Assembly (NCBI GenBank): GCA_019894975.1
Contig: JAGXNO010000050.1
Span: 1-21,309, forward strand
Direction of reading: 5' to 3'
DNA length: 21,309 nt
Origin: Promethearchaeota archaeon
Lineage (GTDB): Archaea; Asgardarchaeota; Lokiarchaeia; Sigyniarchaeales; SOKP01
A program made the translations under genes and the position numbers. Each line of letters opens with the position of its first letter. Position 1 is the stretch's first letter. The notes under the pieces are model-generated. The model worked only from the letters and a program-made list of their open reading frames with translations, searched no databases and was not told the origin of the DNA. Positions 2 through 21,308 of this stretch are shown here, in pieces.

Positions 2-1168
2 GTTGTGTTTCTAACCCATATGGGTTTCACGAGAACTTATCATGGAGATATTTCCTTACGAGGGGTTATTTCTGTGGCAGCAATAACTGGAAATGTAACG
101 ACGACAGTAAGCTCGGGATATATGCCCGCAGCCTTAAATTGGAATCCATTTCTTAAAGCTATCCCTAACAAACCAAGTTATCATAGAATAGGAATCCTTA
201 ATCTATATGATGCGGTTATTTCTGGGAATCCATACCCAATAAAGGCTCTTTGGTTTGCTTTTATTAATTTCCTAAATCAATGCGCTAACTCTAATAAAAT
301 TATCGAGCAATTCTATCCAAACGTAGAATTCATTGTACAAACTGAATTATTTATGACTCCATCAACGCGATATGCTGACCTAATTCTTCCCGTCTGTAGC
401 TTTTTAGAATTTTCTGATTTTATAGCTCAACCTTATCCTAATATTCAACTTCAACAAAAAGTTATTGAACCTTTATATGAGTCTAAATCTGATGCAATTA
501 TTGTATCTGAACTTGCAGAACGTCTCGGTTTCGGAGAATATTTCCAAGGTGGAGAGGAGGGCTTAATTGATCTTATCATGGCAAATCGCTCCTTCGAAGG
601 AATTACACGAGAAACTTTGAAGAATCAAGCGGTGCAATTACCACCCCTCCCAGAGGGAGCAAGTTTTCCACTTAGCTTTGGGACACCTTCAAGGAAAATT
701 GAATTATATGCAGAACAGCTATATGAGGATGGGGAAGCTCTTCCTGTCTATTTACCACCAATTGAAGCACCAATTACACCTGGTATTAAGAAGTACCCAT
801 TAACACTTATTAATGGTCATAGTCGTTTCCGTACTCATTCTATGTTTGCAAATGTGGAATCTTTACTAGATCTAAATCCTGAACCATTGGTAGATATTCA
901 CCCAATTGATGCTGAGAAACGAAATATAAACACTAATGATATGGTTACTGTATATAATGATAGAGCTCGAACAACACTAAAAGCTAGAGTAACCGAAGGA
1001 GTGAAACCAGGTGTATTGGATATTACTGAAGGGTGGTGGATAGAACAATTTAAAGAGGGAAGTTTGAATCATCTGACACATGATATAATTAATCCCGTAC
1101 AAGATAAAATATATGAACCGAACATGCATATGAATGATGTTGCTGTGGAGGTGGAAAAAAATGAGTAA
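2..1168 (+). CDS. DMSO-reductase-family molybdopterin (bis-MGD) oxidoreductase catalytic subunit, C-terminal part (5'-truncated by window edge)
   Basis: Frame is open from base 2. Contains 'ELFMTPSTRYADLILP', 'QQKVIEPLYESKSD', 'FGTPSRKIELY', and a C-terminal molybdopterin dinucleotide-binding domain 'YPLTLINGHSRFRTHS...IHPIDAEKRNI...VYNDRA...VTEGVKPGV...EGWW'. Followed by a DmsB-like gene. Confidence 0.92.
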   Translation, partial: VVFLTHMGFTRTYHGDISLRGVISVAAITGNVTTTVSSGYMPAALNWNPFLKAIPNKPSYHRIGILNLYDAVISGNPYPIKALWFAFINFLNQCANSNKIIEQFYPNVEFIVQTELFMTPSTRYADLILPVCSFLEFSDFIAQPYPNIQLQQKVIEPLYESKSDAIIVSELAERLGFGEYFQGGEEGLIDLIMANRSFEGITRETLKNQAVQLPPLPEGASFPLSFGTPSRKIELYAEQLYEDGEALPVYLPPIEAPITPGIKKYPLTLINGHSRFRTHSMFANVESLLDLNPEPLVDIHPIDAEKRNINTNDMVTVYNDRARTTLKARVTEGVKPGVLDITEGWWIEQFKEGSLNHLTHDIINPVQDKIYEPNMHMNDVAVEVEKNE

Positions 1169-1745
1169 AAACAAACAACTCGGAATGATTATTGATCAAG
1201 AAAGATGCATTGGATGCGAAGCATGTACAATAGCCTGTAAAATTGAAAATAATTCCACTGATTATTGGATAAAAGTTGAAACTCAAGGTGGTGCTGTGAA
1301 AGATACTCCTGCTGGAAATTTTCCCAATTTGACTATGGATTTTCTTCCTAAATTGTGTAATCATTGCGAGAATCCCCCTTGCGTTGATTCTTGTCCTGAA
1401 GCTGCCATCCAACAAAGAGATGATGGGATTGTTATTTTAGAACAGGAATTATGTACTGGATGCCAGTCGTGTTTAACAGCATGCCCCTATAATATTATTG
1501 TTTTCGATGATGAGAATAACCTTGCGGGAAAATGTAATTTCTGCTTTCATAGGGTGGATCAGGGACTTGAACCTTTCTGTGTAATATGTTGTGAAGGTCA
1601 AGCGCTATATTTTGGAGATTTAAACGACTCTTCTAGTGTTGTTTCAAAATTGAAATCTGAAAAAAACTCTTATCGACTTAAACTTGAAACAGAAACAAAC
1701 CCAAAGGTTTATTATATTCCATCTCAACCCAAAAAAAGGCTTTGA
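1161..1745 (+). CDS. dmsB: 4x[4Fe-4S] electron-transfer subunit (DmsB/NrfC-like)
   Basis: Four Cys groups: CIGCEACTIAC, CNHCENPPCVDSC, CTGCQSCLTAC, CNFC...CVICC. Start re-called at ATG 1161 (MSKNKQLGMIIDQERC), which overlaps the upstream stop (ATGAGTAA) and follows SD GGAGGTG at 1147-1153. Confidence 0.92.
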   Translation: MSKNKQLGMIIDQERCIGCEACTIACKIENNSTDYWIKVETQGGAVKDTPAGNFPNLTMDFLPKLCNHCENPPCVDSCPEAAIQQRDDGIVILEQELCTGCQSCLTACPYNIIVFDDENNLAGKCNFCFHRVDQGLEPFCVICCEGQALYFGDLNDSSSVVSKLKSEKNSYRLKLETETNPKVYYIPSQPKKRL

Positions 1746-1969
1746 TCTTTAATTTATTTCTTTCTGTTTTTCAATTACTCTACAAAAATTTCAGTAATAG
1801 ATTTCCTAAAGATGGGATATCTTTAATTTCAGCAGCTTGGCTTGTTTTAGAGAAACTGGTTAAAGACAGTAATTTAAAGGCCTTTCCAATAGCTAAGTAA
1901 TTATTCTTATTAGCGTTTTCTTGGAAATTAAAAAGAAATTGATAAAAAAATATAATAAAATAGAATCTT

Positions 1970-3280
1970 TTATACATCTGTATTTTCAATAATCATTGCT
2001 GTTCCTTGACCACCGCCACAACACATTGTAGCGAGACCATACTTTGCCTTTTTCTCTTTGAGGATTCTTGCTAAGCTGCCAACTATTCTAGGGCCTGTTG
2101 CTGCGATTGGATGGCCAAGTGCAATTCCACCGCCTTTAACATTAACATCATCTAACCTGTCGTCTAATCCCATCTCATGAACCCAGTTAAGACCTACAAT
2201 AGCAAAAGCCTCATTAATTTCCCAAAAGGCAATATCATCAGTTGTTAATCCTGCATGTTTTAGTGCCATCCAAGATGCTGGAACCGGACCTCTCCCCATT
2301 ACAGTAGGATCAACCGCCCCATAACCAACTGAAACGATACGAGCTAACGGATCTAAATCATGTTTCTTCATAGCATCTTCTGACATTAGCAATAATGTAG
2401 CTGCTCCTGCATTTGTAGGGCATGAATTCCCTGCAGTCACTAAACCTTGTTCTGTTCCAAATTCTTTAACATATTCTTCCTTAGTCATGAGTGGTCTGTA
2501 ATATCCACCATCCCATCCAGGTTTACTTAAAGCCCTTAGATCTTTTGTTCCTTCATATGTAGCATTCTTTCTAACTGAAGTATCATGTTCTATTAATAAT
2601 GGAGTATCTTCATCACCTTCTGCATGAGCCATTATAGGGACAATTTCACCTTTGAAAAAACCTTCCTCTTGGGCTTTTCCAGCTAAGTTGTGACTGCGAA
2701 CTGAGAACCTATCATTATCTTCTTTTGTAAAAATGCCAGCATTCATTTCTGAGAGTTTTTGAGCAGTCTGTAACATTGAGTAAGAGCAGCGGAAATCAAC
2801 AACATCATCTACAAAAAGTTCATGGCCTCTCCTCATAGCTGGAGGTGTTTCTCTTACCGTTGAAGCTCTTTTTGGGTTTCTGGACATTGTCGCATTATTT
2901 TTCCCTGAAGCAATTACAACATCAGAATACCCCAAAGCAATGTTATCAAAGCCTATGGAGGCGCAAGTCATTCCTGAGCCACATTGTCTATCTAGTGCGA
3001 CAGATGATACTTTAGCGGGAAATTTAGATAAAAACAGGGGGTATCTCCCTCCAAAAGTTACATATTCAAAATTGAAATGAGTAGCTCCAATGTAAAACTC
3101 ATCTACATCTTCAGGTGTTAGTTTGCCCTTTAATCGATTGTCAAACATTTCGTTTATTGTTAAGGCAGTTAATTCATCAGGACGTAAGTTTCCAAGTACA
3201 TCTCTAGGGGGTTCTCTTGGTCGAGATCTTGAAAAAGGAGTTCTTATATAATCAGTAATGTATACATCTCTTATTTTCAT
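1970..3280 (-). CDS. Acetyl-CoA C-acyltransferase (thiolase), catalytic residues intact but loops divergent
   Basis: DRQCGSG (nucleophile Cys), EINEAFA, GGGIALGHP, MCCGGGQG. Archaeal-type N-terminus 'DYIRTPFSRSRPREPPRDV'. SD AGAGGT upstream. Confidence 0.93.
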   Translation of the reverse strand: MKIRDVYITDYIRTPFSRSRPREPPRDVLGNLRPDELTALTINEMFDNRLKGKLTPEDVDEFYIGATHFNFEYVTFGGRYPLFLSKFPAKVSSVALDRQCGSGMTCASIGFDNIALGYSDVVIASGKNNATMSRNPKRASTVRETPPAMRRGHELFVDDVVDFRCSYSMLQTAQKLSEMNAGIFTKEDNDRFSVRSHNLAGKAQEEGFFKGEIVPIMAHAEGDEDTPLLIEHDTSVRKNATYEGTKDLRALSKPGWDGGYYRPLMTKEEYVKEFGTEQGLVTAGNSCPTNAGAATLLLMSEDAMKKHDLDPLARIVSVGYGAVDPTVMGRGPVPASWMALKHAGLTTDDIAFWEINEAFAIVGLNWVHEMGLDDRLDDVNVKGGGIALGHPIAATGPRIVGSLARILKEKKAKYGLATMCCGGGQGTAMIIENTDV

Positions 3281-3320
3281 AATTTTTAAACCTCTTTTAT
3301 TTCTTTTACCTCATATTTTA

Positions 3321-4652
3321 CTAATCTAAATTTTCAATTACTACAGCAGTTCCTTGACCGCCACCGCATGACATAGCAGCGAGTCCGTATTTAGCCTTTT
3401 TCTCTTTGAGAATTCTAGCTAATGTTGTTGTGATCCTCAAACCTGTAGCGGATGCGGGATTCCCTATCGCTATTGCTCCTCCATGAATATTCATTTTATT
3501 TTCCCAATCAATCCCTAATTTTTTAGCAGCATTAAGTGCTACAACACTAAAGGATTCGTTGATTTCAAAATAATCAATATCTCCTACTGTTAAATTTGCA
3601 TGTTTTAACGCCATTTGGGATGCGGGTAACACACCTCTTCCTCTTACAGTTGGATCTACTCCGGCAAAACCAATGGAGATAACTTTCGAAATGGGTTTCA
3701 AATTGTATTCTTCTAATGCATTTTTAGATGCTATTATACATAGTGAAGCCCCATTACTTATTGGAGAGCTATTTCCTGTCGTTATTATACCCTCTTCAGT
3801 TCCAAATTTCTTAAGATATTCCTCTTTAGAAATCACAGGATTTTTATAACCACCCGCCCATCCTGGAGTACTTATAGAAGGCATGCTAGCAATATTTTCC
3901 AAAGTAACTGCTTTTTTAATAGATTGATCTGTTTCAATGTCGATTTGGGCATCAGTGTCACCTACTTCATGACCCTTAAGAGACATAATTTCCTCTTTGA
4001 AATATCCACTTTCCAAAGCTTTTTCTGCTAGGCTATGACTACGTGCACCAAATTTATCCATTTCCTCTTTCGTAACATGATCTGCTTCTTCTTCCGCGAG
4101 TTTCTGAGCTGATTGGAATAATAAACGACTCGTTTTCCAATCATATAAATCATCATTATACCATTTGTTATCCGGATCAAGCATAAGTTTATCTGGGGGT
4201 ATTCCAAATACTGTTACTTTTCCATCATAGGTATGTAGCGGAACCCGAGTAAATTGATCAAAACCAACAGAGACTACTACATCGGAATAGCCCATTGAAA
4301 TATTTGCGAAACCAACATGCAAAGTTGTCATACCAGAACCGTCTTGTCTGTCAAATACCGTCGCGGGTACATGAAAGGGAAATTTTGCCATAAAAATAGG
4401 GATTCGTCCCCCAAATGTCCCGTGCTCATGTTGTAGTAAGGCACTACCAACCAAAACCTCACTAACATCCTCACGCTTCAGCGTACTACCTTTGTTTGGT
4501 ATTCTGTTATCAAACATGTCCAATAAAGCATGAGCTGCAAGTTCTAATCCCTGCTTCTCACTAAAAACATCAGCAGCAGGATCTAGAGGATTTGCTTGAG
4601 AAAATGGTGTCCTTACATGGTCTACTAAATATACTTCTTTTGCTTCTTTCAT
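3321..4652 (-). CDS. Thiolase-fold protein lacking canonical catalytic residues (pseudo-thiolase / non-canonical thiolase)
   Basis: Full-length alignment to the two neighbouring thiolases, but DRQDGSG (C->D), NESFS, GGAIAIGNP (H->N) and MSCGGGQG (C->S at the CxGGG position). Confidence 0.9.
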   Translation of the reverse strand: MKEAKEVYLVDHVRTPFSQANPLDPAADVFSEKQGLELAAHALLDMFDNRIPNKGSTLKREDVSEVLVGSALLQHEHGTFGGRIPIFMAKFPFHVPATVFDRQDGSGMTTLHVGFANISMGYSDVVVSVGFDQFTRVPLHTYDGKVTVFGIPPDKLMLDPDNKWYNDDLYDWKTSRLLFQSAQKLAEEEADHVTKEEMDKFGARSHSLAEKALESGYFKEEIMSLKGHEVGDTDAQIDIETDQSIKKAVTLENIASMPSISTPGWAGGYKNPVISKEEYLKKFGTEEGIITTGNSSPISNGASLCIIASKNALEEYNLKPISKVISIGFAGVDPTVRGRGVLPASQMALKHANLTVGDIDYFEINESFSVVALNAAKKLGIDWENKMNIHGGAIAIGNPASATGLRITTTLARILKEKKAKYGLAAMSCGGGQGTAVVIENLD

Positions 4653-4760
4653 ATTTCATTTTCTCTTTTTTGTTTAAAATATATAGAATATAATGTTGAA
4701 ATTTATCGATTGAATAAATATTTTCAGATGATCAGAAATAGGCAGGATTTCTATCTTTAA

Positions 4761-4792: not shown

Positions 4793-5575
4793 TTACTTCC
4801 CCTTAAATACTGGTTTACGTTTTTCAACAAAAGCCGTAGCTGCTTCTCTATGATCCTCCGAAGCATAACATTTGGCATTAAATTCACTTTCAACGTTTAA
4901 CATTTCAGCAAATAATTTATCGTAACCTCTATTTACTGCTTCCTTGGAAAGGGCTAATGCAATAGGTGCTTGGTCTGCTAGATGATTCGCAAATTCCATT
5001 GTTTTTGGTAATAATTCTTCAGGGGGAAATACAGCATTTACTAAGCCAATCTTCATAGCCTCCTCAGCGAAAATACGTTTACCACTAAAAATAAGCTCCT
5101 TTGCTTTATGAATACCTATAAATTTGGGGAGCAGGAAACTCCCATTCATATCGGGAATTAATCCCATACGAATAAAGAATTCCCCAAAACTCGCTTTTTC
5201 TGAGGCATAAATGATATCGCAACTTAGAGTTAAATTGGTTCCAAATCCAACGGCTACACCATTTACAGCGGCAATAATGGGCTTGTATAAACGGAAGAAA
5301 TCATAAGGGTGTATAGTCACCCTACCTCCTGCGATTTCTTCCCTAAATTTACCACTCGCAAATTCCTGTACATCTGCTCCTGCACAAAATGCTTTTCCTG
5401 CTCCAGTGATAACTATTGCTCTCACATCAGAATCTTCTTTGGCTACCTTTAGAGAATTTTTCAAATCAGCATTCATCTGTACATTGATTGCGTTCATTCT
5501 TTCAGGACGATTAAGTGTAATTAATGCCACCATACCTTTTTTCTCATAAATAATTGTCTCATATTCAGGACTCAT
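4793..5575 (-). CDS. Enoyl-CoA hydratase/isomerase (crotonase) family protein, PaaG-like isomerase type
   Basis: 'ITLNRPERMNA', 'AFCAGADV', 'AAVNGVAVGFG', 'GLIPD', C-terminal 'AFVEKRKPVFKGK'. The two hydratase Glu positions are N and F. Start re-called at ATG 5575 (MSPEYE), behind SD GAAGGTG. Confidence 0.9.
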   Translation of the reverse strand: MSPEYETIIYEKKGMVALITLNRPERMNAINVQMNADLKNSLKVAKEDSDVRAIVITGAGKAFCAGADVQEFASGKFREEIAGGRVTIHPYDFFRLYKPIIAAVNGVAVGFGTNLTLSCDIIYASEKASFGEFFIRMGLIPDMNGSFLLPKFIGIHKAKELIFSGKRIFAEEAMKIGLVNAVFPPEELLPKTMEFANHLADQAPIALALSKEAVNRGYDKLFAEMLNVESEFNAKCYASEDHREAATAFVEKRKPVFKGK

Positions 5576-5793
5576 AACAAATAACACCTTCAAACTAATT
5601 CTGTTAATAATATGTTAGTTTTTACTTTGTATTAATTAAAATTGATTATTGGACTATTTAATTCTTTTTTGGATAATTGGAAAAACAGCGCAACAGTAGT
5701 TATCAAGTTAAAAAATAAAATTTTATTATCATCCCAATTTAAATAAACTATTAACTATATTTTGACCAAAAAAAAAATATATGATGATAAAAA

Positions 5794-7076: not shown

Positions 7077-7913
7077 TTATTCTACAATGGCATATGCGTT
7101 CCCAAGTACAACTGGACCTCGGTCAGTTCGTAATTGAATGATATAACGACCATTATCTTTCCAACCTTCAGTCGTAAGGGTTTCTCCCGGGAACACAACG
7201 TCTTTGAATCTTGCACTGAATTCTTTAAACCGAGAAACATCCCCATCACATAACTCATTTACAATAGCACGTGTAGCAATCCCGTATGTACATAATCCAT
7301 GAAGGATTGGTTTTGGTTGACGTGCCATTTTCGCAAAATTTGGATCGATATGCAGTGGATTAAGATCTCCATTTAGTCTATAATATGCTGCTTGATTGGG
7401 ACTGGTTTGATAAGAACTGCTAAAATCTGGTTCTACACCTTCGGGAGGATTAATTGGCTCAGTTTTTGGTCCTGGATCCCCTCCAAAACCTCCTGAACCG
7501 GCAACGAAAAAGACATACTTCGTATCAAAGATATGCTCGCCTTCTAACGAATGTCCGGATACTTTTGTATGGATGAGAGCTGCTTTACCTTTACCTTTAT
7601 CGTATATATGTTCTATGACACCTTTTGTTTTTATGGTTCCACTTGGTTTAAATGGAACATAAACTCGGATTAATTGCTCACCATGTAATAAACGGACATA
7701 ATCAGTTCCTTGAGGGAAAAGCATTCCGCTCCCCGCTACTATCGTTGCAAAACTGGGAAATACTTTCATCCCGCCTTGTACTCTTTCATAAACAAAGGAT
7801 AAATCTTCTGCTTGTGCCCCAATTCCCAAATTATACAAGGCAATCCTTTTCCAATCATACTCAAATGTTCCTTCTTTTGTTTGTCCTACTGAATCTAATT
7901 CTATTTTTGACAT
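7077..7913 (-). CDS. (R)-specific enoyl-CoA hydratase 2 (MaoC double hot-dog, MFE-2 hydratase-like), copy 2
   Basis: Hydratase-2 motif YRLNGDLNPLHIDP (D-x4-H), PILHGLCTYG, LLHGEQ, YDKGKG, GSGGFGG, VFPGETL. Confidence 0.93.
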   Translation of the reverse strand: MSKIELDSVGQTKEGTFEYDWKRIALYNLGIGAQAEDLSFVYERVQGGMKVFPSFATIVAGSGMLFPQGTDYVRLLHGEQLIRVYVPFKPSGTIKTKGVIEHIYDKGKGKAALIHTKVSGHSLEGEHIFDTKYVFFVAGSGGFGGDPGPKTEPINPPEGVEPDFSSSYQTSPNQAAYYRLNGDLNPLHIDPNFAKMARQPKPILHGLCTYGIATRAIVNELCDGDVSRFKEFSARFKDVVFPGETLTTEGWKDNGRYIIQLRTDRGPVVLGNAYAIVE

Positions 7914-8047: not shown

Positions 8048-8887
8048 TTACTCTACAACAGCGTATGCACTACCTAAAACTGTTGCTCTTTCAGTTTTTA
8101 CTTGGATTATATAGCGTCCGTCATCTTTCCAGCCTTCTGTTGTCAAAGTTTCACCAGGATATACTTCGCTAGTAAATCTTGCTTTAAATTCTTTAAAACG
8201 TGAAACATCTCCATCACAAAGACCATATACTATAGCTCGAGTTGCATGACCATAAGTACATAGTCCATGAAGGATTGGTCTATCAAATCTTCCACTTCTC
8301 TTAGCAAATACAGGATCTAAATGTAAAGGGTTGTAATCGCCACTTAGCCTATAGATAGCAGCTTGATTTATATTGGTTTTATATGATACACTAAAATCTG
8401 GTTCTTTTCCCTCAGGAGGATCTAATGGTTCAGCTTTAGGGCCACGATCTCCACCCCAACCACCTTCATTTATATAGAAATGAACATATTTAGCATCAAA
8501 AATGTGTTCACCATCAGGAGTTCTACCCGACATTCTAGTATGAATAACAGCTGCTTTCCCCTTATCAAACATATTTTCGCATACTCCTTTAACTTTGATT
8601 TCTCCTTCGGACGGAAAGGGCTTAACGAGTTTTATCATTTGTTCCCCATGAATAAATCGAGCGCCATCAACAGGTTTGTCGCTAAGTTTTGGGAATCCTA
8701 CTCCCGCGAGAATACATGCATAACTCGGGAAAACTTGTACTCCTCCAGGATATCGCTCATAAACAAACTTAAGCTCATCTGGTTGAGCACCAATCCCGAG
8801 ATTATAGAGTATTACGTCTTTCCAAGTATATTTAATAGTTCTTTCTTCAGTTTCTTTACCAATTACATCTAAATTTAAACTTGTCAT
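8048..8887 (-). CDS. (R)-specific enoyl-CoA hydratase 2 (MaoC double hot-dog, MFE-2 hydratase-like), copy 1
   Basis: YRLSGDYNPLHLDP, PILHGLCTYG, FIHGEQ, FDKGK, EGGWGG, VYPGETL. SD GGTGAGGAG upstream. Confidence 0.93.
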   Translation of the reverse strand: MTSLNLDVIGKETEERTIKYTWKDVILYNLGIGAQPDELKFVYERYPGGVQVFPSYACILAGVGFPKLSDKPVDGARFIHGEQMIKLVKPFPSEGEIKVKGVCENMFDKGKAAVIHTRMSGRTPDGEHIFDAKYVHFYINEGGWGGDRGPKAEPLDPPEGKEPDFSVSYKTNINQAAIYRLSGDYNPLHLDPVFAKRSGRFDRPILHGLCTYGHATRAIVYGLCDGDVSRFKEFKARFTSEVYPGETLTTEGWKDDGRYIIQVKTERATVLGSAYAVVE

Positions 8888-9069: not shown

Positions 9070-10011
9070 TTAAGGATTATTTAATTCATCTTGGCTAACA
9101 GCACCTTCCCGTTTAGAAGGTAAGTCTTTCATTAGTTCTGGCATTCTATCAGCTAATTGTTGAGTAGTAAATGGTTTCCAATCGTTTGATATTTTCTTTA
9201 CAGCCCTCCAACCACGATAAACCCACACTTTATCTGCAATAGCTCTAAAAACTTCTCCATTAATCCCTTTAGCCTCATCAGTAGCAAGATATGCTACGAT
9301 AGGAGCAAAATGAGATGGATGAAAGATATCAAAACCGTCTGGTGTTTTTGCTTTCATATAGTCACCCATTCTAGGAGTCAAATCAGTTGTCATACGAGTT
9401 CGTGCACTTGGAACTACACAATTCACAGTAGCGTATTTTGCAAGCTCTCTAGAAACTATTACTGAGAAAGTTGCTATTCCTGATTTAGCGGCACCGTAAT
9501 TTGATTGACCTACATTTCCAAATAATCCAGAATCAGAAGCGGTATTTATAATTCTACCAAAATTTCCTAATGATTCATCAGCTTTACCCCTTTCTCTAAA
9601 GTAAGAAGCAGCATGCCTGGTTAAATTAAATGTTCCCTTCATATGGACAGCAATAACAAGATCAAACTCTTCTTCTGCCATATTAAATATCATTCTGTCG
9701 CGTAAAATTCCCGCATTGTTTACTACGATATCTAATTTGCCAAATTCAGAAATAGCTTGATCTATCATAGCCTTAGTTTTATTGTAATCAACTACAGAGT
9801 CGTAATTCCCTATTGCTTTAACTCCAAGAGCTTTACATTCATCAACGACAGTATCAGCAATTTTAGCATCTTTATCCAGATGGCTAGCTCCACCGCCAAT
9901 ATCATTAATTACTAAATTACATCCTTCTTTTGCCATAAGTAATGCTTCTTCACGGCCTACACCACGACCAGCACCAGTTATTATGGCAACTTTTCCGTCT
10001 AACATTCCCAT
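9070..10011 (-). CDS. SDR-family NAD-dependent oxidoreductase, 3-hydroxyacyl-CoA dehydrogenase of MFE-2/HSD17B4-like type
   Basis: TGAGRGVG Rossmann motif, INDIGG, NNAGILRDR, VHMKGTF, GRIINTAS, GLFGNVGQSNYGAAK (YxxxK). Confidence 0.92.
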   Translation of the reverse strand: MGMLDGKVAIITGAGRGVGREEALLMAKEGCNLVINDIGGGASHLDKDAKIADTVVDECKALGVKAIGNYDSVVDYNKTKAMIDQAISEFGKLDIVVNNAGILRDRMIFNMAEEEFDLVIAVHMKGTFNLTRHAASYFRERGKADESLGNFGRIINTASDSGLFGNVGQSNYGAAKSGIATFSVIVSRELAKYATVNCVVPSARTRMTTDLTPRMGDYMKAKTPDGFDIFHPSHFAPIVAYLATDEAKGINGEVFRAIADKVWVYRGWRAVKKISNDWKPFTTQQLADRMPELMKDLPSKREGAVSQDELNNP

Positions 10012-13943: not shown

Positions 13944-15095
13944 ATGATATTGGAGAAAAATTTAAAGATTCATGGTTTTTGTGATGAGCAATTTGAACCA
14001 GTTAAAAAAGTCTTTTTAGAAAATTTTAAGTCTGGTTTGGAAGTAGGTGCTTCTCTTGCTATTACAATAAATGGTAAGTATGTTTTAGATATTTGGGCGG
14101 GCTTTGCTGATGAGGACCAAACAAAGCCATGGGAAGAAGAAACAATAGTTAATGTATATTCTACAACAAAAGTGATGACTACACTTTGTGTTCTCATGCT
14201 TGTAGATAGGAATCTCATTGACTTAGATGCACCCATCGCTAATTATTGGCCTGAATTCAAACAAGCAGGAAAGGAAGAGATTCCTGTTCGTTATCTTCTT
14301 AGCCATACGGCAGGACTCCCTGGTTTTGACCAACGGATTCAACCAGAAACACTTTATGATTGGGATCGGTGTACAAGTCTTTTAGCTGCCCAAAAACCAT
14401 GGTGGGAACCTGGAACTAAAAATGGATATCACTCTATAACATTTGGTTATCTTTTGGGTGAATTGGTTCGACGTGTTTCAGGCAAAAGTCTTGGTACATT
14501 TTTTCGAGAGGAGGTTGCAATACCACTTAAAGCTGATTTCCATATAGGATTGCTTGAAGAACACGATTCCCGGGTTGCGGGATTGATTCCACCTATTCCG
14601 CCAGTACCCCAAAATACCGGTAAAGTTGATCCAAATTCAATACCTGTTCGAGTATTTTCGAATCCCATTCTGACATCAAGAGAAACTTTAACACGTGAAT
14701 GGAGAGCTGCGGAAATTCCCGCTTCAAATGGGCATGGTAATGCTAGATCCATAGCAAGAGTAGGATCAGCATTAGCTTGTGGTGGTGAACTTGATGGTGT
14801 GAAATTACTTTCATTAAATACAATCGAAAAAGCTATTGAAGAACAATCATATAATACTGATTTAGTTCTTAGTAAACCTATTCGCTTTGGCTTAGGTTTT
14901 GGTCTTGTTAGTAAAGAAATGCCAATCAGCCCAAATCCCAGATCTTTTTACTGGCAAGGATGGGGGGGCTCACATCTTACTATGGATCTTGATGCTAAAA
15001 TGAGCTGGGCATATGCTATGAATAGGATGGTGATGTCTCTAACTGGAGACCCTCGTACTATGAAATTGCGAAAAGAAATTAACAAAGTTCTATAA
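13944..15095 (+). CDS. Beta-lactamase-fold serine hydrolase (family VIII esterase / EstA-like)
   Basis: SxxK motif 'YSTTK', 'LDAPIANYWPEF', 'LLSHTAGL', 'PWWEPG...GYHSITFG', 'EIPASNG', 'GWGGS'. No signal peptide. Confidence 0.92.
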   Translation: MILEKNLKIHGFCDEQFEPVKKVFLENFKSGLEVGASLAITINGKYVLDIWAGFADEDQTKPWEEETIVNVYSTTKVMTTLCVLMLVDRNLIDLDAPIANYWPEFKQAGKEEIPVRYLLSHTAGLPGFDQRIQPETLYDWDRCTSLLAAQKPWWEPGTKNGYHSITFGYLLGELVRRVSGKSLGTFFREEVAIPLKADFHIGLLEEHDSRVAGLIPPIPPVPQNTGKVDPNSIPVRVFSNPILTSRETLTREWRAAEIPASNGHGNARSIARVGSALACGGELDGVKLLSLNTIEKAIEEQSYNTDLVLSKPIRFGLGFGLVSKEMPISPNPRSFYWQGWGGSHLTMDLDAKMSWAYAMNRMVMSLTGDPRTMKLRKEINKVL

Positions 15096-17179: not shown

Positions 17180-18679
17180 CTAAATAATACCCTCCCATGC
17201 TACTCTTTCATTTCCATAGGGATCTTGTTCGATTGTCACTTCCTTATCAAAAAGTATTGTAGCTCTATTTTCTTTATCATAGGGAGGTAATTCTGGAATA
17301 TTTTCATGATTTGGGTTACCTGAACGAGCAAATGCAATCCAAGTATCCATCATTTGTTCTGATAATCTCTGAGTTTCTTCAGTTCTGCCTGGAAAAAATC
17401 CAATATCTCTGTCCCCAAAAAGACCGAATACAAAAGGAAGTTCAAGAGCATGCATTGCACCAAATTTTCCCCCACCCAAAGGACTCTGCCAAGTGAAAAG
17501 ATACATGTAAATATTCTTTTGATGTTTGGATTGTTCTTCAGCAAGACGAATAGAAGGTATCCGAAACGTAAAATCTGTTAATATTGCATCCGTGATATTT
17601 CTTGGTGTTTTTCTTAATTCTCGATACCTATCTATTATCTCTTTAGCTTTACTTTCTTTCTGCTTTGTAAATCTCATAAATGTATTTACTGTTTTATGTA
17701 ATCTTTCCTCTGAAAGCTCGAAAGCCTTTGGATTCCACATTAAAAACATTTTGTTTTCATCCAAATTTGATCCGATGAATACATCAATATCTTTAGCATC
17801 ACCTTTAGATATGGCTTCTAGTGGGTGAACTGGTAAAGTACTTTTTTCTATAACTGGTCCCACTCTTAATCCACTTGCTCGGAATTCTGTCATATCCATC
17901 TGTGGTACAATAAAATTTTCAGCTGGAGATTTCCGTAATGCTTCTATATTTCCTTTTTCAACACCCAATTTTTGAATCAATTCTTCATAAACTTTAATCG
18001 CAGAAACAGGATTATAACTGAATTTATTTGCGGCTCCAGATTGGGGGATTGCTCTATGAAACAATCCCTTCGCTGAAGGCGTAGCAAGTAAGGTAGAAAC
18101 AGCCATACCACCAGCGGATTCCCCAAAAATAGTGACATTATTAGGATCTCCTCCAAACTTTTGGATATTCTCTTTTACCCATTCAAGTGCTGCAACCATA
18201 TCAAGTATTCCCGCATTAGCAGTCGTATCAGGCATATCTGGCATATATAAAAAACCAAGATATCCAAGACGATAATTAATGCTAACTACAACCACGTCCC
18301 CCCTAAAAACTAGCCGCGTTCCATCTAAGGAAGCACCACTTCCTGTAGTAAATCCACCCCCATGAATCCAAAACATAACTGGCCTCTTACCAATATCTAA
18401 TCCTTGCGTCCATATATTTAAAGTTAAACATTCAGCTTCACTCTGAGGCATAGGTTCTCCAAATTGTGCTTCGAGGAGTGAAGGAGGCTGAATTGAAACA
18501 GGACTATAATTTGTTGCATCAAGTACATCACTCCAAGGCTCAACAGGAGCTGGAGGTTTGAAACGAAGATTTCCTTTAGGTGGGGCAGCATAAGGAATAC
18601 CCTTAAATTTGAACACACCTCTTCGACTATATCCCCTTACTATACCATTTGTTGTTTCTACTATAACATCTTCTCCCAT
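17180..18679 (-). CDS. Type-B carboxylesterase (PnbA/COesterase family), copy 2
   Basis: FKGIPYAAPP.GNLRF, ECLTLNIW, WIHGGGF, NYRLG, FGESAGG (Ser), GSNLDE (Glu), MHALEL (His). Start ATG 18679 or 18688. Confidence 0.94.
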   Translation of the reverse strand: MGEDVIVETTNGIVRGYSRRGVFKFKGIPYAAPPKGNLRFKPPAPVEPWSDVLDATNYSPVSIQPPSLLEAQFGEPMPQSEAECLTLNIWTQGLDIGKRPVMFWIHGGGFTTGSGASLDGTRLVFRGDVVVVSINYRLGYLGFLYMPDMPDTTANAGILDMVAALEWVKENIQKFGGDPNNVTIFGESAGGMAVSTLLATPSAKGLFHRAIPQSGAANKFSYNPVSAIKVYEELIQKLGVEKGNIEALRKSPAENFIVPQMDMTEFRASGLRVGPVIEKSTLPVHPLEAISKGDAKDIDVFIGSNLDENKMFLMWNPKAFELSEERLHKTVNTFMRFTKQKESKAKEIIDRYRELRKTPRNITDAILTDFTFRIPSIRLAEEQSKHQKNIYMYLFTWQSPLGGGKFGAMHALELPFVFGLFGDRDIGFFPGRTEETQRLSEQMMDTWIAFARSGNPNHENIPELPPYDKENRATILFDKEVTIEQDPYGNERVAWEGII

Positions 18680-18751
18680 TTTTATCATCTTCCATAATAG
18701 ATTTTTAAATAAAATAAAACATTTTTTTAATAAATATTTAAATTAAATATT

Positions 18752-20251
18752 CTATAAAATACCTTCCCAAGAAATCCTTTCATTTCCAAAAGGATCTTGC
18801 TGAATCGAAACCTCCTTATCAAAAATAATAGTTGCTCTTTTTTCTTGATCATAAGGAGGTAATTCTGGAATATTTTTATGATTAGGATTCCCAGAACGCG
18901 CAAAATTAATCCAAGCATCCATCATTTTTTCCGATAATTCTAAAGTTTCTTTAGTTTTACGGGGAAATATACCAACATCTCGATCAAGAAGAATTCCGAA
19001 TACAAATGAAAGCTCAAGAGCATGCATTGCCCCGTATTTCCCTCCCTCCCAGGGAGTTTTCCAAGAAAATAAGTACATATAAGTATTCTTATTGTGTTGA
19101 GATTGTGCTTCAGCAAGACGAATGGAAGGAATACGAAATTGATAATCAGTATTTATTGCATCAAAGATATCCTTTGGAGTTTTTCTTAGATTTTTATAAA
19201 CCTCAATGAGTTCTTTAGATTTTATTTCATTTTGATTTACTAATCGCATTATACCATTAACTCTTCTCTCTAATCTTTCTTCAGTAAAATCGTCTTCCCC
19301 CGAGACCCAAACAGACCAAAGTTTAGTCTCGTCAAAATTAGAGCCTACAAATAAATCTATATCCTTGGCAAAACCGTTTTTAACAGCTTCATAAGGATTT
19401 TCGGGTAAAGTATCTTCATCAATCGTTGGAGTAAAACTTAATACATCCTGTCCAGCATTCTCGAAACTGGCTAATTTCTCAATAATCTTTTCATAAGGAA
19501 GTTTCCTTAAAGATTCTATATCTCCTCTTTCAATTCTTAACCTTTCAGTTAAAGTCTCATAGATTTTTATCCCAGTTGAAGGTTGGCAACTAAAATTGGT
19601 TACATAACCAGATTGAACAATAGCTCTTTTAAACAATCCTTTTGCAGACGGCGTAGCAAGTAGACTATGTACCGCAAAAGCTCCCGCAGATTCACCAAAA
19701 ATTGTTATTTCTTCAGGATTTCCTCCAAAACGGTTTATGTTTTCTCTTACCCATTTGAGTGCTTCAACCATATCAAGTAGCCCTATATTCGCAGATGTAT
19801 CCGGTACATCAGGCATATACAAAAATCCAAAAGGACCAAGTCGGTAATTAATACTTACAACCACTACATCTCCCCTTAAAACTAAACGTGAACCATCCAA
19901 AGCTCGTCCACTGCCAGTTCGAAATGCACCTCCATGAATAAAAAACATTACTGGACGTTTCTCATCATTGAGTTTTTGTGTCCATATGTTCAATGTTAAT
20001 GAGTCAGCTTCGTTCTGAGGAAATGGGTCTGAAAACATTTCTTCTAGTGCAGATGGAGGTTGAGGACAAACTGGACTATACATTGTTGCATCACGGATAT
20101 CATCCCAAGGTTTAATCGAGACTGGTGGTTTGAAACGTAAATTCCCTATAGGTGGTTCCGCATAAGGAATTCCCTTAAATTTTGTAACACTTCTGTTTGA
20201 ATATCCTCTCACACTGCCTGATGATGTTTTTACTATATCATTCTCTTCCAT
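18752..20251 (-). CDS. Type-B carboxylesterase (PnbA/COesterase family), copy 1
   Basis: FKGIPYAEPP.GNLRF, FIHGGAF, NYRLG, FGESAGA, GSNFDE, MHALEL. Start ATG 20251 (GTGAT SD) or GTG 20260. Confidence 0.94.
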   Translation of the reverse strand: MEENDIVKTSSGSVRGYSNRSVTKFKGIPYAEPPIGNLRFKPPVSIKPWDDIRDATMYSPVCPQPPSALEEMFSDPFPQNEADSLTLNIWTQKLNDEKRPVMFFIHGGAFRTGSGRALDGSRLVLRGDVVVVSINYRLGPFGFLYMPDVPDTSANIGLLDMVEALKWVRENINRFGGNPEEITIFGESAGAFAVHSLLATPSAKGLFKRAIVQSGYVTNFSCQPSTGIKIYETLTERLRIERGDIESLRKLPYEKIIEKLASFENAGQDVLSFTPTIDEDTLPENPYEAVKNGFAKDIDLFVGSNFDETKLWSVWVSGEDDFTEERLERRVNGIMRLVNQNEIKSKELIEVYKNLRKTPKDIFDAINTDYQFRIPSIRLAEAQSQHNKNTYMYLFSWKTPWEGGKYGAMHALELSFVFGILLDRDVGIFPRKTKETLELSEKMMDAWINFARSGNPNHKNIPELPPYDQEKRATIIFDKEVSIQQDPFGNERISWEGIL

Positions 20252-20265
20252 TATAATCACATTTT

Positions 20266-20829
20266 CTATTTTTTTTGTTTTGGTTTAAATATAATTGATG
20301 GTCCAAACTTTTCATGATATTGAAATCCTTCAGCTTCAATATTTTTACCATATTTTTTGTGTAATTTATCCATGGGCCCTACATCCAAAGCATACATAGG
20401 ACAAGATTCAACACAAATTGCTTGCTTATCATCGTCTAATCTTTCTACACATAGTTGGCATTTTCTCATTTTTGCATTTTCAGTTGAATTGAATTGAGGG
20501 GCATCCCAAGGACACACTTTTAAGCATTTTGATCCACATTCAGTCTTGCCCAAACATACATTTTGATCCACTATAACAATCCCATCTATTTCTCTTTTGG
20601 TTATAGCATTTACAGGGCAACCTTTAATACACGGAGGATCAGCACAATGATTACACGCTATAGCAAGGTAAGAAAGAGATAAGTTTGGGAACTTTCCTTT
20701 TTCAATTGGAATTATACGCATCCAATTTTCTGGTCCTGCTTCAATATTATACCAGTCCTTACAGGAAACCGAACATGTATAACAACCAGTACATCTTGTT
20801 TGATCGAAATAAAAACCCATTTGTTTCAT
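20266..20829 (-). CDS. dmsB: 4x[4Fe-4S] electron-transfer subunit (DmsB-like)
   Basis: MKQMGFYFDQTRCTGCYTCSVSCKD, CNHCADPPCIKGC, CLGKTECGSKCLKVC, CQLC...CVESC. Start re-called at ATG 20829, an ATGA overlap with the upstream stop. Confidence 0.92.
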   Translation of the reverse strand: MKQMGFYFDQTRCTGCYTCSVSCKDWYNIEAGPENWMRIIPIEKGKFPNLSLSYLAIACNHCADPPCIKGCPVNAITKREIDGIVIVDQNVCLGKTECGSKCLKVCPWDAPQFNSTENAKMRKCQLCVERLDDDKQAICVESCPMYALDVGPMDKLHKKYGKNIEAEGFQYHEKFGPSIIFKPKQKK

Positions 20830-21308
20830 GATAAGTCCCCCGAATTCTTTTTTGAAAATAGTTCTACTTGAACAAGTGCACTGTTCATCGGAAAAGCACC
20901 TCCAGGAGAACGCGAATCTTTTGTTAGAACATTCCCACATCCTCCAATATCAACACCGTCTTTATTTGGATTATACCATGCACCTTGATAAACTACCACA
21001 ACTCCAGGAATCACACGTTCTGTAACATTAGCGGGGATACGAACTTTACCCCTATCGTTGAACGTGTCGACTAGATCTCCTTGCTCAATCCCTCTTGGTT
21101 CAGCATCTATAGGATTTATCCATACCATATGTGGTTCTACTTCTTCTAACCATGGGATCATACTAATACTTGAATGAGTTCTTCTTTTATTATGGGGTGT
21201 CAGTAGCTGTAATGGATACTTTTTCGCTAAAGGGGCATCATAATGCTCTTCATGACTTAGATATTTAGGAATTGGTGGCATATTTGGGATACCTAGCTCA
21301 TCCATGTG
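20826..21308 (-). CDS. dmsA: DmsA/YnfE-like molybdopterin oxidoreductase catalytic subunit, C-terminal domain (5'-truncated by window edge)
   Basis: 'YPLQLLTPH..RRTHS', 'VWINPIDAEPRGI', 'FNDRG', 'VTERVIPGVV', 'QGAWY.P...GVDIGGCGNVLT', 'NSALVQVE'. Frame is open to the window edge. Confidence 0.88.
   Translation of the reverse strand, partial: HMDELGIPNMPPIPKYLSHEEHYDAPLAKKYPLQLLTPHNKRRTHSSISMIPWLEEVEPHMVWINPIDAEPRGIEQGDLVDTFNDRGKVRIPANVTERVIPGVVVVYQGAWYNPNKDGVDIGGCGNVLTKDSRSPGGAFPMNSALVQVELFSKKNSGDLS

Follow-up and report, generated by a model that had tools for sequence, protein, structure and literature searches.

The DNA considered here is contig JAGXNO010000050.1 of assembly GCA_019894975.1, a stretch of 21,309 nucleotides from a Promethearchaeota archaeon (hereafter the window; GC content of about 35%), which belongs to an Asgard archaeal genome (G000) that is 95% complete by marker genes. 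Our subject is a pair of adjacent thiolase genes in it, the first of which encodes a thiolase-like protein with substituted catalytic residues (P0002), and the second an intact thiolase (P0001); a third thiolase (P0003) lies elsewhere in the window, and the coordinates of all these features are collected in Table 1. We will refer to P0002 and its orthologues as "dead" thiolases, and to P0001 and its orthologues as their "live" partners. A preliminary description, made from the DNA letters alone, had placed the dead gene upstream of, and co-directional with, the live one; this is confirmed, both genes being on the same strand with a gap of exactly 40 nt.

Both proteins are recognized as thiolases by family models. 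Their only Pfam matches at E <= 0.001 are Thiolase_N, Thiolase_C and Thiolase_C_1, the first two with E = 6e-33 and 4e-41 for P0001 and E = 5e-25 and 2e-35 for P0002; both also pass the NCBIfam model TIGR01930 (cut-off 240.55), with 319 and 281 bits, respectively. The catalytic set of P0001 is complete (Cys100, Asn356, His390, Cys420). In P0002, the nucleophilic Cys is replaced by Asp (residue 104, in the motif DRQDGSG), the catalytic His by Asn (residue 398, GHP becoming GNP) and the base Cys before GGG by Ser (residue 428), with retention of the Asn of the NEAF motif. Judged by these residues, P0001 has all that is expected of a catalytically competent thiolase, and P0002 is not one. Besides, the two proteins share the motifs GSGMT, GYSDVV and VDPTV.GRG and a Cys directly before GGGQG, sites at which P0003 differs, as the preliminary description had noted. 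The same description had also regarded an insertion of 20-odd residues (PGW.GGY...KE.Y..FGTE.G), which precedes the GNS(S/C)P motif, as private to the pair; this does not hold, as neighboring active clades have it and P0003 carries a form four residues shorter, and the insertion is, on the sequences compared, a trait of this Asgard thiolase family. Recent horizontal transfer of the pair was considered and rejected, since the GC and GC3 (GC at third codon positions) of both genes match those of the neighboring genes.

Table 1. Features of the window, and tandem thiolase genes of two other loci, with their coordinates
Feature	Coordinates	Strand	Details
Dead thiolase P0002, 443 aa	3321..4652	-	Intact open reading frame; Thiolase_N and Thiolase_C matches
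Live partner thiolase P0001, 436 aa	1970..3280	-	Intact open reading frame; Thiolase_N and Thiolase_C matches
Spacer between the P0002 and P0001 genes	3281..3320	-	40 nt
Conserved non-coding region directly upstream of the dead gene	4653..4727	-	About 75 nt; two TATA-like A/T boxes
T-runs after the live-gene stop	1930..1969	-	T7 at 1944-1950, T5 near 1930-1934
Crotonase-type enoyl-CoA hydratase, upstream of the pair	4793..5593	-	ECH_1, E = 3.5e-66
Cys-rich protein, 375 aa	5794..6921	+	C-terminal 2x[4Fe-4S] domain
Tandem MFE-2-type double-hot-dog hydratases, then short-chain dehydrogenase/reductase (SDR) and third thiolase	7077-7913, 8048-8887, 9070-10011	-	Intact GDxNPLH in both hydratases
Third thiolase P0003	10195-11472	-	Intact; Cys/Asn/His/Cys kept (sequence motifs)
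Beta-lactamase-fold protein	13944-15095		
Tandem type-B carboxylesterases	17180-18688, 18752-20260	-	COesterase, E ~1e-120
Dimethyl sulfoxide (DMSO)-reductase-family molybdopterin oxidoreductase and 4Fe-4S dicluster subunit genes, first set	2-1168 and 1134-1745	+	
DMSO-reductase-family molybdopterin oxidoreductase and 4Fe-4S dicluster subunit genes, second set	20826-21308 and 20266-20940	-	
Tandem active/active P0003-type thiolases	L013 2707-5434 (G125:C144)		58% or 72-77% identical to P0003
Tandem active/active P0003-type thiolases	L014 3579-6289 (G138:C142)		58% or 72-77% identical to P0003

The single-chain AlphaFold2 (AF2) models of both proteins are confident, with a predicted local distance difference test score (pLDDT) of 95.6 and a predicted template-modeling score (pTM) of 0.93 for P0002, and of 94.9 and 0.94 for P0001. 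The best solved-structure matches of the P0002 model in Foldseek are the FadA thiolases 3goa and 1wdk_C, with a template-modeling (TM) score of 0.92 on the target at about 30% identity, and P0002 is accordingly modeled as keeping the full thiolase fold. It also retains the GNSSP motif of the pantetheine loop, the glycine-rich C-terminal motif and basic residues in the SIKKA segment, which aligns with the part of solved thiolases that binds the nucleotide of coenzyme A (CoA). The segment that is relaxed in the dead copy is a hairpin ahead of this nucleotide-binding stretch, and it is not taken as evidence for a loss of CoA binding.

Conservation, linkage and divergence of the pair

A search of 5.8 billion proteins returned about 35 orthologues of P0002 at 55-94% identity, and the database proteins nearest to the pair come from metagenome-assembled genomes (MAGs) labeled Promethearchaeota or Hermod-, Hod-, Thor- or Odinarchaeota. 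The nucleophilic Cys is absent from all 35 members of the dead clade that were examined, being mostly Asp, with Trp, Ala or Ser in deep members; the catalytic His is replaced by Asn, Glu or Leu (one fragment being unreadable at this site), and the base Cys, likewise absent in 35 of 35, by Ser, Pro, Ala or Thr. In the deep members, Asp stands for the Asn of NEAF as well, so that all four catalytic positions vary across the clade, and a shared new catalytic set at these sites is unlikely. Within the main subclade (around 30 sequences at 69-94% identity), Asp, Asn and Ser are strictly kept at the three substituted sites. All members of the partner clade retain all four catalytic residues. In a representative library at 50% identity, the whole dead clade collapses into one cluster, and 114 of the 128 sequences checked among neighboring thiolases, P0001 and P0002 included, are catalytically complete. 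Two further sequences may be mentioned on their own account. P0107 (403 aa, from a metagenome contig of 2108 bp) keeps the nucleophilic Cys, but its His and base Cys are replaced as in the dead clade, by Asn and Ser, respectively; it falls with the outgroup in the tree described below, and could be an assembly chimera or a recombinant. P0176 (378 aa, from the representative library), an unrelated thiolase, has Gly/Asn/Asp/Asn at the four catalytic positions and is, by these residues, a member of another fully dead thiolase lineage.

The dead gene is under purifying selection. Across 13 orthologous loci, its ratio of nonsynonymous to synonymous divergence (dN/dS) is 0.12-0.20 (about 0.15), with 0.07-0.17 (about 0.10) for the live gene; the dead copies are free of stop codons and frameshifts, and the reading frame is full length in every locus read. 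Of 78 comparisons, 65 give it a higher dN than its live partner, and its invariant columns are fewer (187, with 270 for the live gene); even so, it is conserved at least as well as the live copy around residues 164-178 and 388-402.

Linkage is equally regular. In a survey of 400 genomes of the phylum, the dead gene had close orthologues only in 15 of the 53 other species of the window's genus, besides one fragment in another family; the gene is complete in 14 of these species and cut by a contig end in the fifteenth. Live-gene orthologues (at least 80% identity) occur in exactly those 14 species, so that co-occurrence, which the preliminary description had put forward as a check, is perfect within the genus; apart from the copy cut by the contig end, no genome among those 53 species has one gene of the pair alone. 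Adjacency, the other check named there, was seen in 13 of 13 loci (the window and 12 others), with the live gene directly downstream on the same strand. In the 12 other loci, the spacer of 32-46 nt, the dead-to-live order and the strand are invariant, while the surrounding genes (crotonase, MaoC hydratases, Fe-S protein, molybdopterin oxidoreductase) shuffle. In the deepest pair, which is of the Ala type (MHA1727932/31), and in several more, consecutive NCBI accessions show the two genes to be neighbors. The pairing extends to members of the dead clade at only 55-60% identity, and two pairs, one Asp-type and the other Trp-type, coexist in one genome. The patchy spread in the genus, with the dead gene in 15 of 53 other species, marks the pair, on this distribution, as an accessory catabolic module. 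A metagenome scan with the dead-clade alignment, by means of generic peptide patterns, yielded among the matches listed only relatives at 47% identity or less, and no added pairs. The reading frames of the two genes agree in four loci, with potential read-through of the stop codon (one of them with a second stop); a joint alignment of such a read-through fusion was tried and discarded, as MAFFT aligned each single-gene homologue to just one of the halves.

A maximum-likelihood tree of 57 Asgard thiolases recovers the dead clade as monophyletic (99 in the Shimodaira-Hasegawa-like approximate likelihood-ratio test, SH-aLRT), the live-partner clade including P0001 with a value of 100, and the two as sisters with a value of 99; the deep dead members mirror the deep live members of the same contigs. 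Forcing all active relatives into one clade without the dead clade costs 15.6 log-likelihood units and is rejected by the approximately unbiased (AU) test (p = 0.012). The earlier proposal of a duplication followed by asymmetric loss of catalysis is supported by these clades and this test. The claim that the two proteins are each other's closest paralogues stands in the tree and is only marginal by pairwise identity (47% versus 46% and 44%). The nearest active sister clade (P0064) was not found in the search of the 400 genomes of the phylum.

Since both stems are long, the live lineage must also have changed after the duplication. The clades are fixed differently at 21 positions, many of them derived in the live clade, with the dead clade keeping the outgroup state; those derived in the live clade include N128, S133, R134, C165, N180 and G321 and cluster at the start of the loop domain, where the live clade has GKNNATM versus G.EHMT in relatives and a shortened loop. 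On the dead side, the loop of P0002 at residues 138-160 is 7-9 residues longer than that of its partner, and is followed by an aromatic motif, KWYNDDLYDWKTS (residues 163-175), which is private to the dead clade and near-invariant in it. The divergence of both lineages after the duplication lies for the most part in the initial portion of the loop domain, which in solved thiolases consists of loops that cover the acyl pocket and mediate oligomerization. A covering loop over the acyl pocket has been described in solved thiolases (PMC7337054). Separately, a charge reversal between the clades was observed (P0001 E154, P0002 K163), which could mark a complementary interface contact and is given as a lead only.

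Expression signals and gene neighborhood

The spacer had been described as T-rich on the coding strand and as a possible site of transcription termination. It is instead A-rich on the coding (minus) strand, and the idea of termination is contradicted by the sequence, with no T-run in the spacer of any of the 13 loci. It does contain a Shine-Dalgarno-like AAGAGGT (3290-3296), 9 nt ahead of the ATG of the live gene, and the same motif stands 8-10 nt before this ATG in 13/13 loci. The non-coding region directly upstream of the dead gene is near-identical in the 12 Asp-type loci (the window, L023-L029 and L031-L034), regardless of the gene further upstream and despite the proteins being only about 80% identical across those 12 species; it differs in the Trp-type locus L030. 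Such conservation suggests that this region is probably the promoter or operator of the pair itself. After the stop of the live gene, T-runs (T6 to T15) are present within about 30 nt in 13/13 loci; they resemble an archaeal terminator, and would function as one. Taken together, the conserved region upstream, the ribosome-binding motif in a spacer devoid of T-runs and the T-runs after the second gene make the pair look like its own bicistronic unit, that is, a two-gene operon.

Among the neighbors, the crotonase gene stands directly upstream of the pair in 7/13 loci, with T-runs after its stop in the window; it is a frequent but not constant neighbor, and thus context rather than core. The Cys-rich protein is the only neighbor that stays near the pair, with at most one gene between them, throughout the 12 Asp-type loci. 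Its N-terminal 300 residues gave no family match, other than a weak, sub-threshold one to a winged-helix regulator family (residues 49-84, E = 0.01), and a role as Fe-S regulator or as redox partner for the locus is conceivable. The hydratase, SDR and thiolase genes resemble, by their families, an (R)-specific beta-oxidation set of the kind of the peroxisomal MFE-2 route, and the carboxylesterases together with the beta-lactamase-fold protein suggest ester hydrolysis feeding these beta-oxidation genes. The two molybdopterin oxidoreductase sets flank the lipid-catabolic genes, the first of them being downstream of the pair in 9/13 loci. Broadly, the gene content points to ester and fatty-acyl catabolism by an MFE-2-like route, without identifying the substrate.

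A proposed heteromeric thiolase and its alternatives

Thiolases are obligate dimers, and the closest paralogue of the live subunit, apparently encoded on the same transcript, would be its likeliest dimer partner, which leads to an alpha-beta reading of the pair. We propose that the two genes encode a heteromeric thiolase with a non-catalytic subunit, in which, we infer, the two proteins associate, and we give this reading a probability of about 0.6. The bicistronic unit would yield a two-protein thiolase, with the downstream P0001 as its only catalytic subunit and the upstream P0002 standing in for the other subunit of the canonical thiolase dimer; the enzyme would be an alpha-beta dimer, or two such dimers joined, and each dimer would have a single live site. 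The extended loop and the invariant aromatic motif of the dead subunit might shape or gate the live pocket, or stabilize the live subunit. The substrate may be a bulkier or unusual 3-ketoacyl-CoA, which is proposed because of the (R)-specific beta-oxidation context with its two MFE-2-type hydratases, SDR, crotonase and esterases. In its full form, in which a true degradative thiolase is an obligate alpha-beta heteromer whose dead paralogue confers specificity or stability on the single live site, maybe with bulky or branched acyl-CoAs as substrates along an (R)-specific beta-oxidation route of the MFE-2 kind, the idea is tentative, at slightly under even odds.

Several observations weigh against a heteromer. 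Linkage and co-occurrence would also be expected if the two proteins act separately in one pathway, and with the motifs that it keeps the dead copy may by itself still be able to bind CoA. Tandems in which both thiolases are active exist in the same genome family, so that a tandem arrangement alone is common; the other tandem pairs found (Table 1) were examined as further live/dead examples and rejected, both members being active P0003-type thiolases, and it is the live/dead combination, rather than the tandem arrangement, that sets the pair apart. Loci L023 (G266) and L031 (G255) are discordant, with dead genes that are 86% identical (synonymous divergence, dS, 0.37) and adjacent live genes that are 96% identical (dS 0.16), which suggests a recombination breakpoint inside one of the genes or between them, and thus that the members of the pair can recombine independently. 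Finally, the sister grouping in the tree joins two long stems, and the group submitted to the AU test was named after the tree had been seen.

The same observations have to be read under other explanations, of which the most serious is that the dead paralogue is a stand-alone non-catalytic protein, for instance one that binds CoA or acyl-CoA, or that serves as carrier, as sensor or as a scaffold for other enzymes of beta-oxidation, working in the same pathway without forming a mixed dimer. The retention of GNSSP, of the glycine-rich C-terminal motif and of the basic residues in the segment aligned with CoA-nucleotide binding would fit such a role, as would the strong conservation of the motifs lining the dead site, and a precedent is available in TLP1 of Mycobacterium smegmatis, described as a thiolase-like protein that is non-catalytic and monomeric rather than a canonical thiolase (PMC3406046). 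Nevertheless, TLP1 is described as a stand-alone protein, whereas P0002 is near classical FadA-like thiolases and always paired with its live sister; the listed part of its solved-structure matches (60 of 76) includes no TLP entry. One-to-one co-occurrence and fixed order with a single thiolase clade, while other pathway genes shuffle, are tighter than a general binder predicts, and neither the strong change of the live partner's lineage after the duplication nor the obligate dimerization of thiolases, which favors the closest paralogue on the same transcript as partner, speaks for separate action. We consider this explanation unlikely.

A new enzymatic function of the upstream protein, with other chemistry on the thiolase scaffold (retro-aldol, hydrolase or decarboxylase), would likewise account for a highly conserved active-site framework and for the Asp, Asn and Ser that are strict at three sites in the main subclade, and thiolase-fold aldolases such as the steroid aldolases Ltp2 and Sal offer a precedent for it (PMC12329534). 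Yet the absence of any catalytic position conserved across the whole dead clade weakens this reading; moreover, Ltp2 and Sal, which are of an SCP-x-like branch, work with a DUF35 or hydratase partner, and no gene for such a partner was found in the window. A neo-functionalized enzyme appears improbable. As for a decaying, functionless pseudogene kept by linkage to its neighbor, the loss of catalytic residues and an evolution faster than that of the partner, seen in dN and in invariant columns, are what it would predict, but intact, full-length open reading frames in all the copies seen, from genomes and metagenomes alike, a dN/dS of about 0.15, an old clade whose distant members remain paired and the confident AF2 model of P0002 are not, and decay of the dead copy is effectively excluded.

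Known live/dead systems and significance

The heteromeric reading places the Asgard pair beside several known systems, although it does not belong to any of them. In type II polyketide synthases, the dead subunit of the ketosynthase/chain-length factor pair (KS/CLF) is an obligate dimer partner and helps to set the chain length of the product. The likeness lies in adjacent, co-directional paralogues of the thiolase superfamily, one of them without the nucleophilic Cys; the difference, in that KS/CLF are ketoacyl-synthase families with substrates bound to the acyl carrier protein, a Cys-His-His triad and a role in biosynthesis, whereas the Asgard pair has Thiolase_N and Thiolase_C domains, CoA esters as the expected substrates, a Cys-Asn-His-Cys set and a degradative context, and its complex and pocket effect are what we infer. 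Judged by its domains, among which no ketoacyl-synthase domain is found, the pair is an analogue of KS/CLF and not a member. In PqsB/PqsC of Pseudomonas aeruginosa, a live and a dead paralogue also stand side by side, with the active site in one subunit only. The shared trait is again that live and dead thiolase-superfamily paralogues are encoded together, but PqsB/PqsC is a bacterial FabH-type condensing enzyme of quinolone biosynthesis and not a thiolase proper. The genetic traits of such live/dead heterodimers of the thiolase superfamily, namely adjacent and co-oriented paralogues that always occur together, one of them without the catalytic Cys, are all present in the Asgard pair.

Catabolic examples are closer in function. 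BbsCD is reported to be an SDR with an inactive pseudoenzyme subunit (doi 10.1111/febs.16216 via PMC10818641), and ChsE4-ChsE5 and ChsH1-ChsH2 are heteromers of steroid side-chain degradation (PMC6678751). As would be the case here, a catabolic step of the beta-oxidation type is carried out in them by a heteromer of paralogues, theirs having half of the sites dead and acting on bulky CoA esters. They differ in concerning dehydrogenase and hydratase steps, the thiolase step of those pathways being assigned to BbsAB (a thiolase and a Zn-finger/DUF35-type subunit) or to an aldolase, and not to a thiolase with a dead thiolase beside it. FadA (PDB 1wdk_C, 3goa) represents the closest solved fold to the dead protein, with 1wdk_C coming from a multienzyme complex of beta-oxidation, but it is a homodimer of active subunits bound to FadB, and no FadB-type fused hydratase/dehydrogenase was found in the window. 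In the literature searched, most subscription journals lying outside the search, we found no thiolase described as having a dead thiolase for its partner subunit.

Orthologues of P0002 are named "acetyl-CoA C-acyltransferase" in public MAG records (e.g., MHA1727932.1, MFW9939718.1), and owing to this annotation the dead protein is counted as a working thiolase in metabolic reconstructions of Asgard archaea; since P0002 passes the TIGR01930 cut-off, automatic pipelines will keep mislabeling it. If the complex forms, the principle of a dead paralogue as partner, so far known from condensing enzymes (KS/CLF, PqsBC) and from dehydrogenase and hydratase steps of specialized beta-oxidation (BbsCD, ChsE, ChsH), would extend to degradative thiolases, and would provide a defined handle on their substrate range. 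The pair sits in a conserved locus of lipid or ester catabolism, in a group of archaea whose fatty-acid metabolism matters for models of the origin of eukaryotes.

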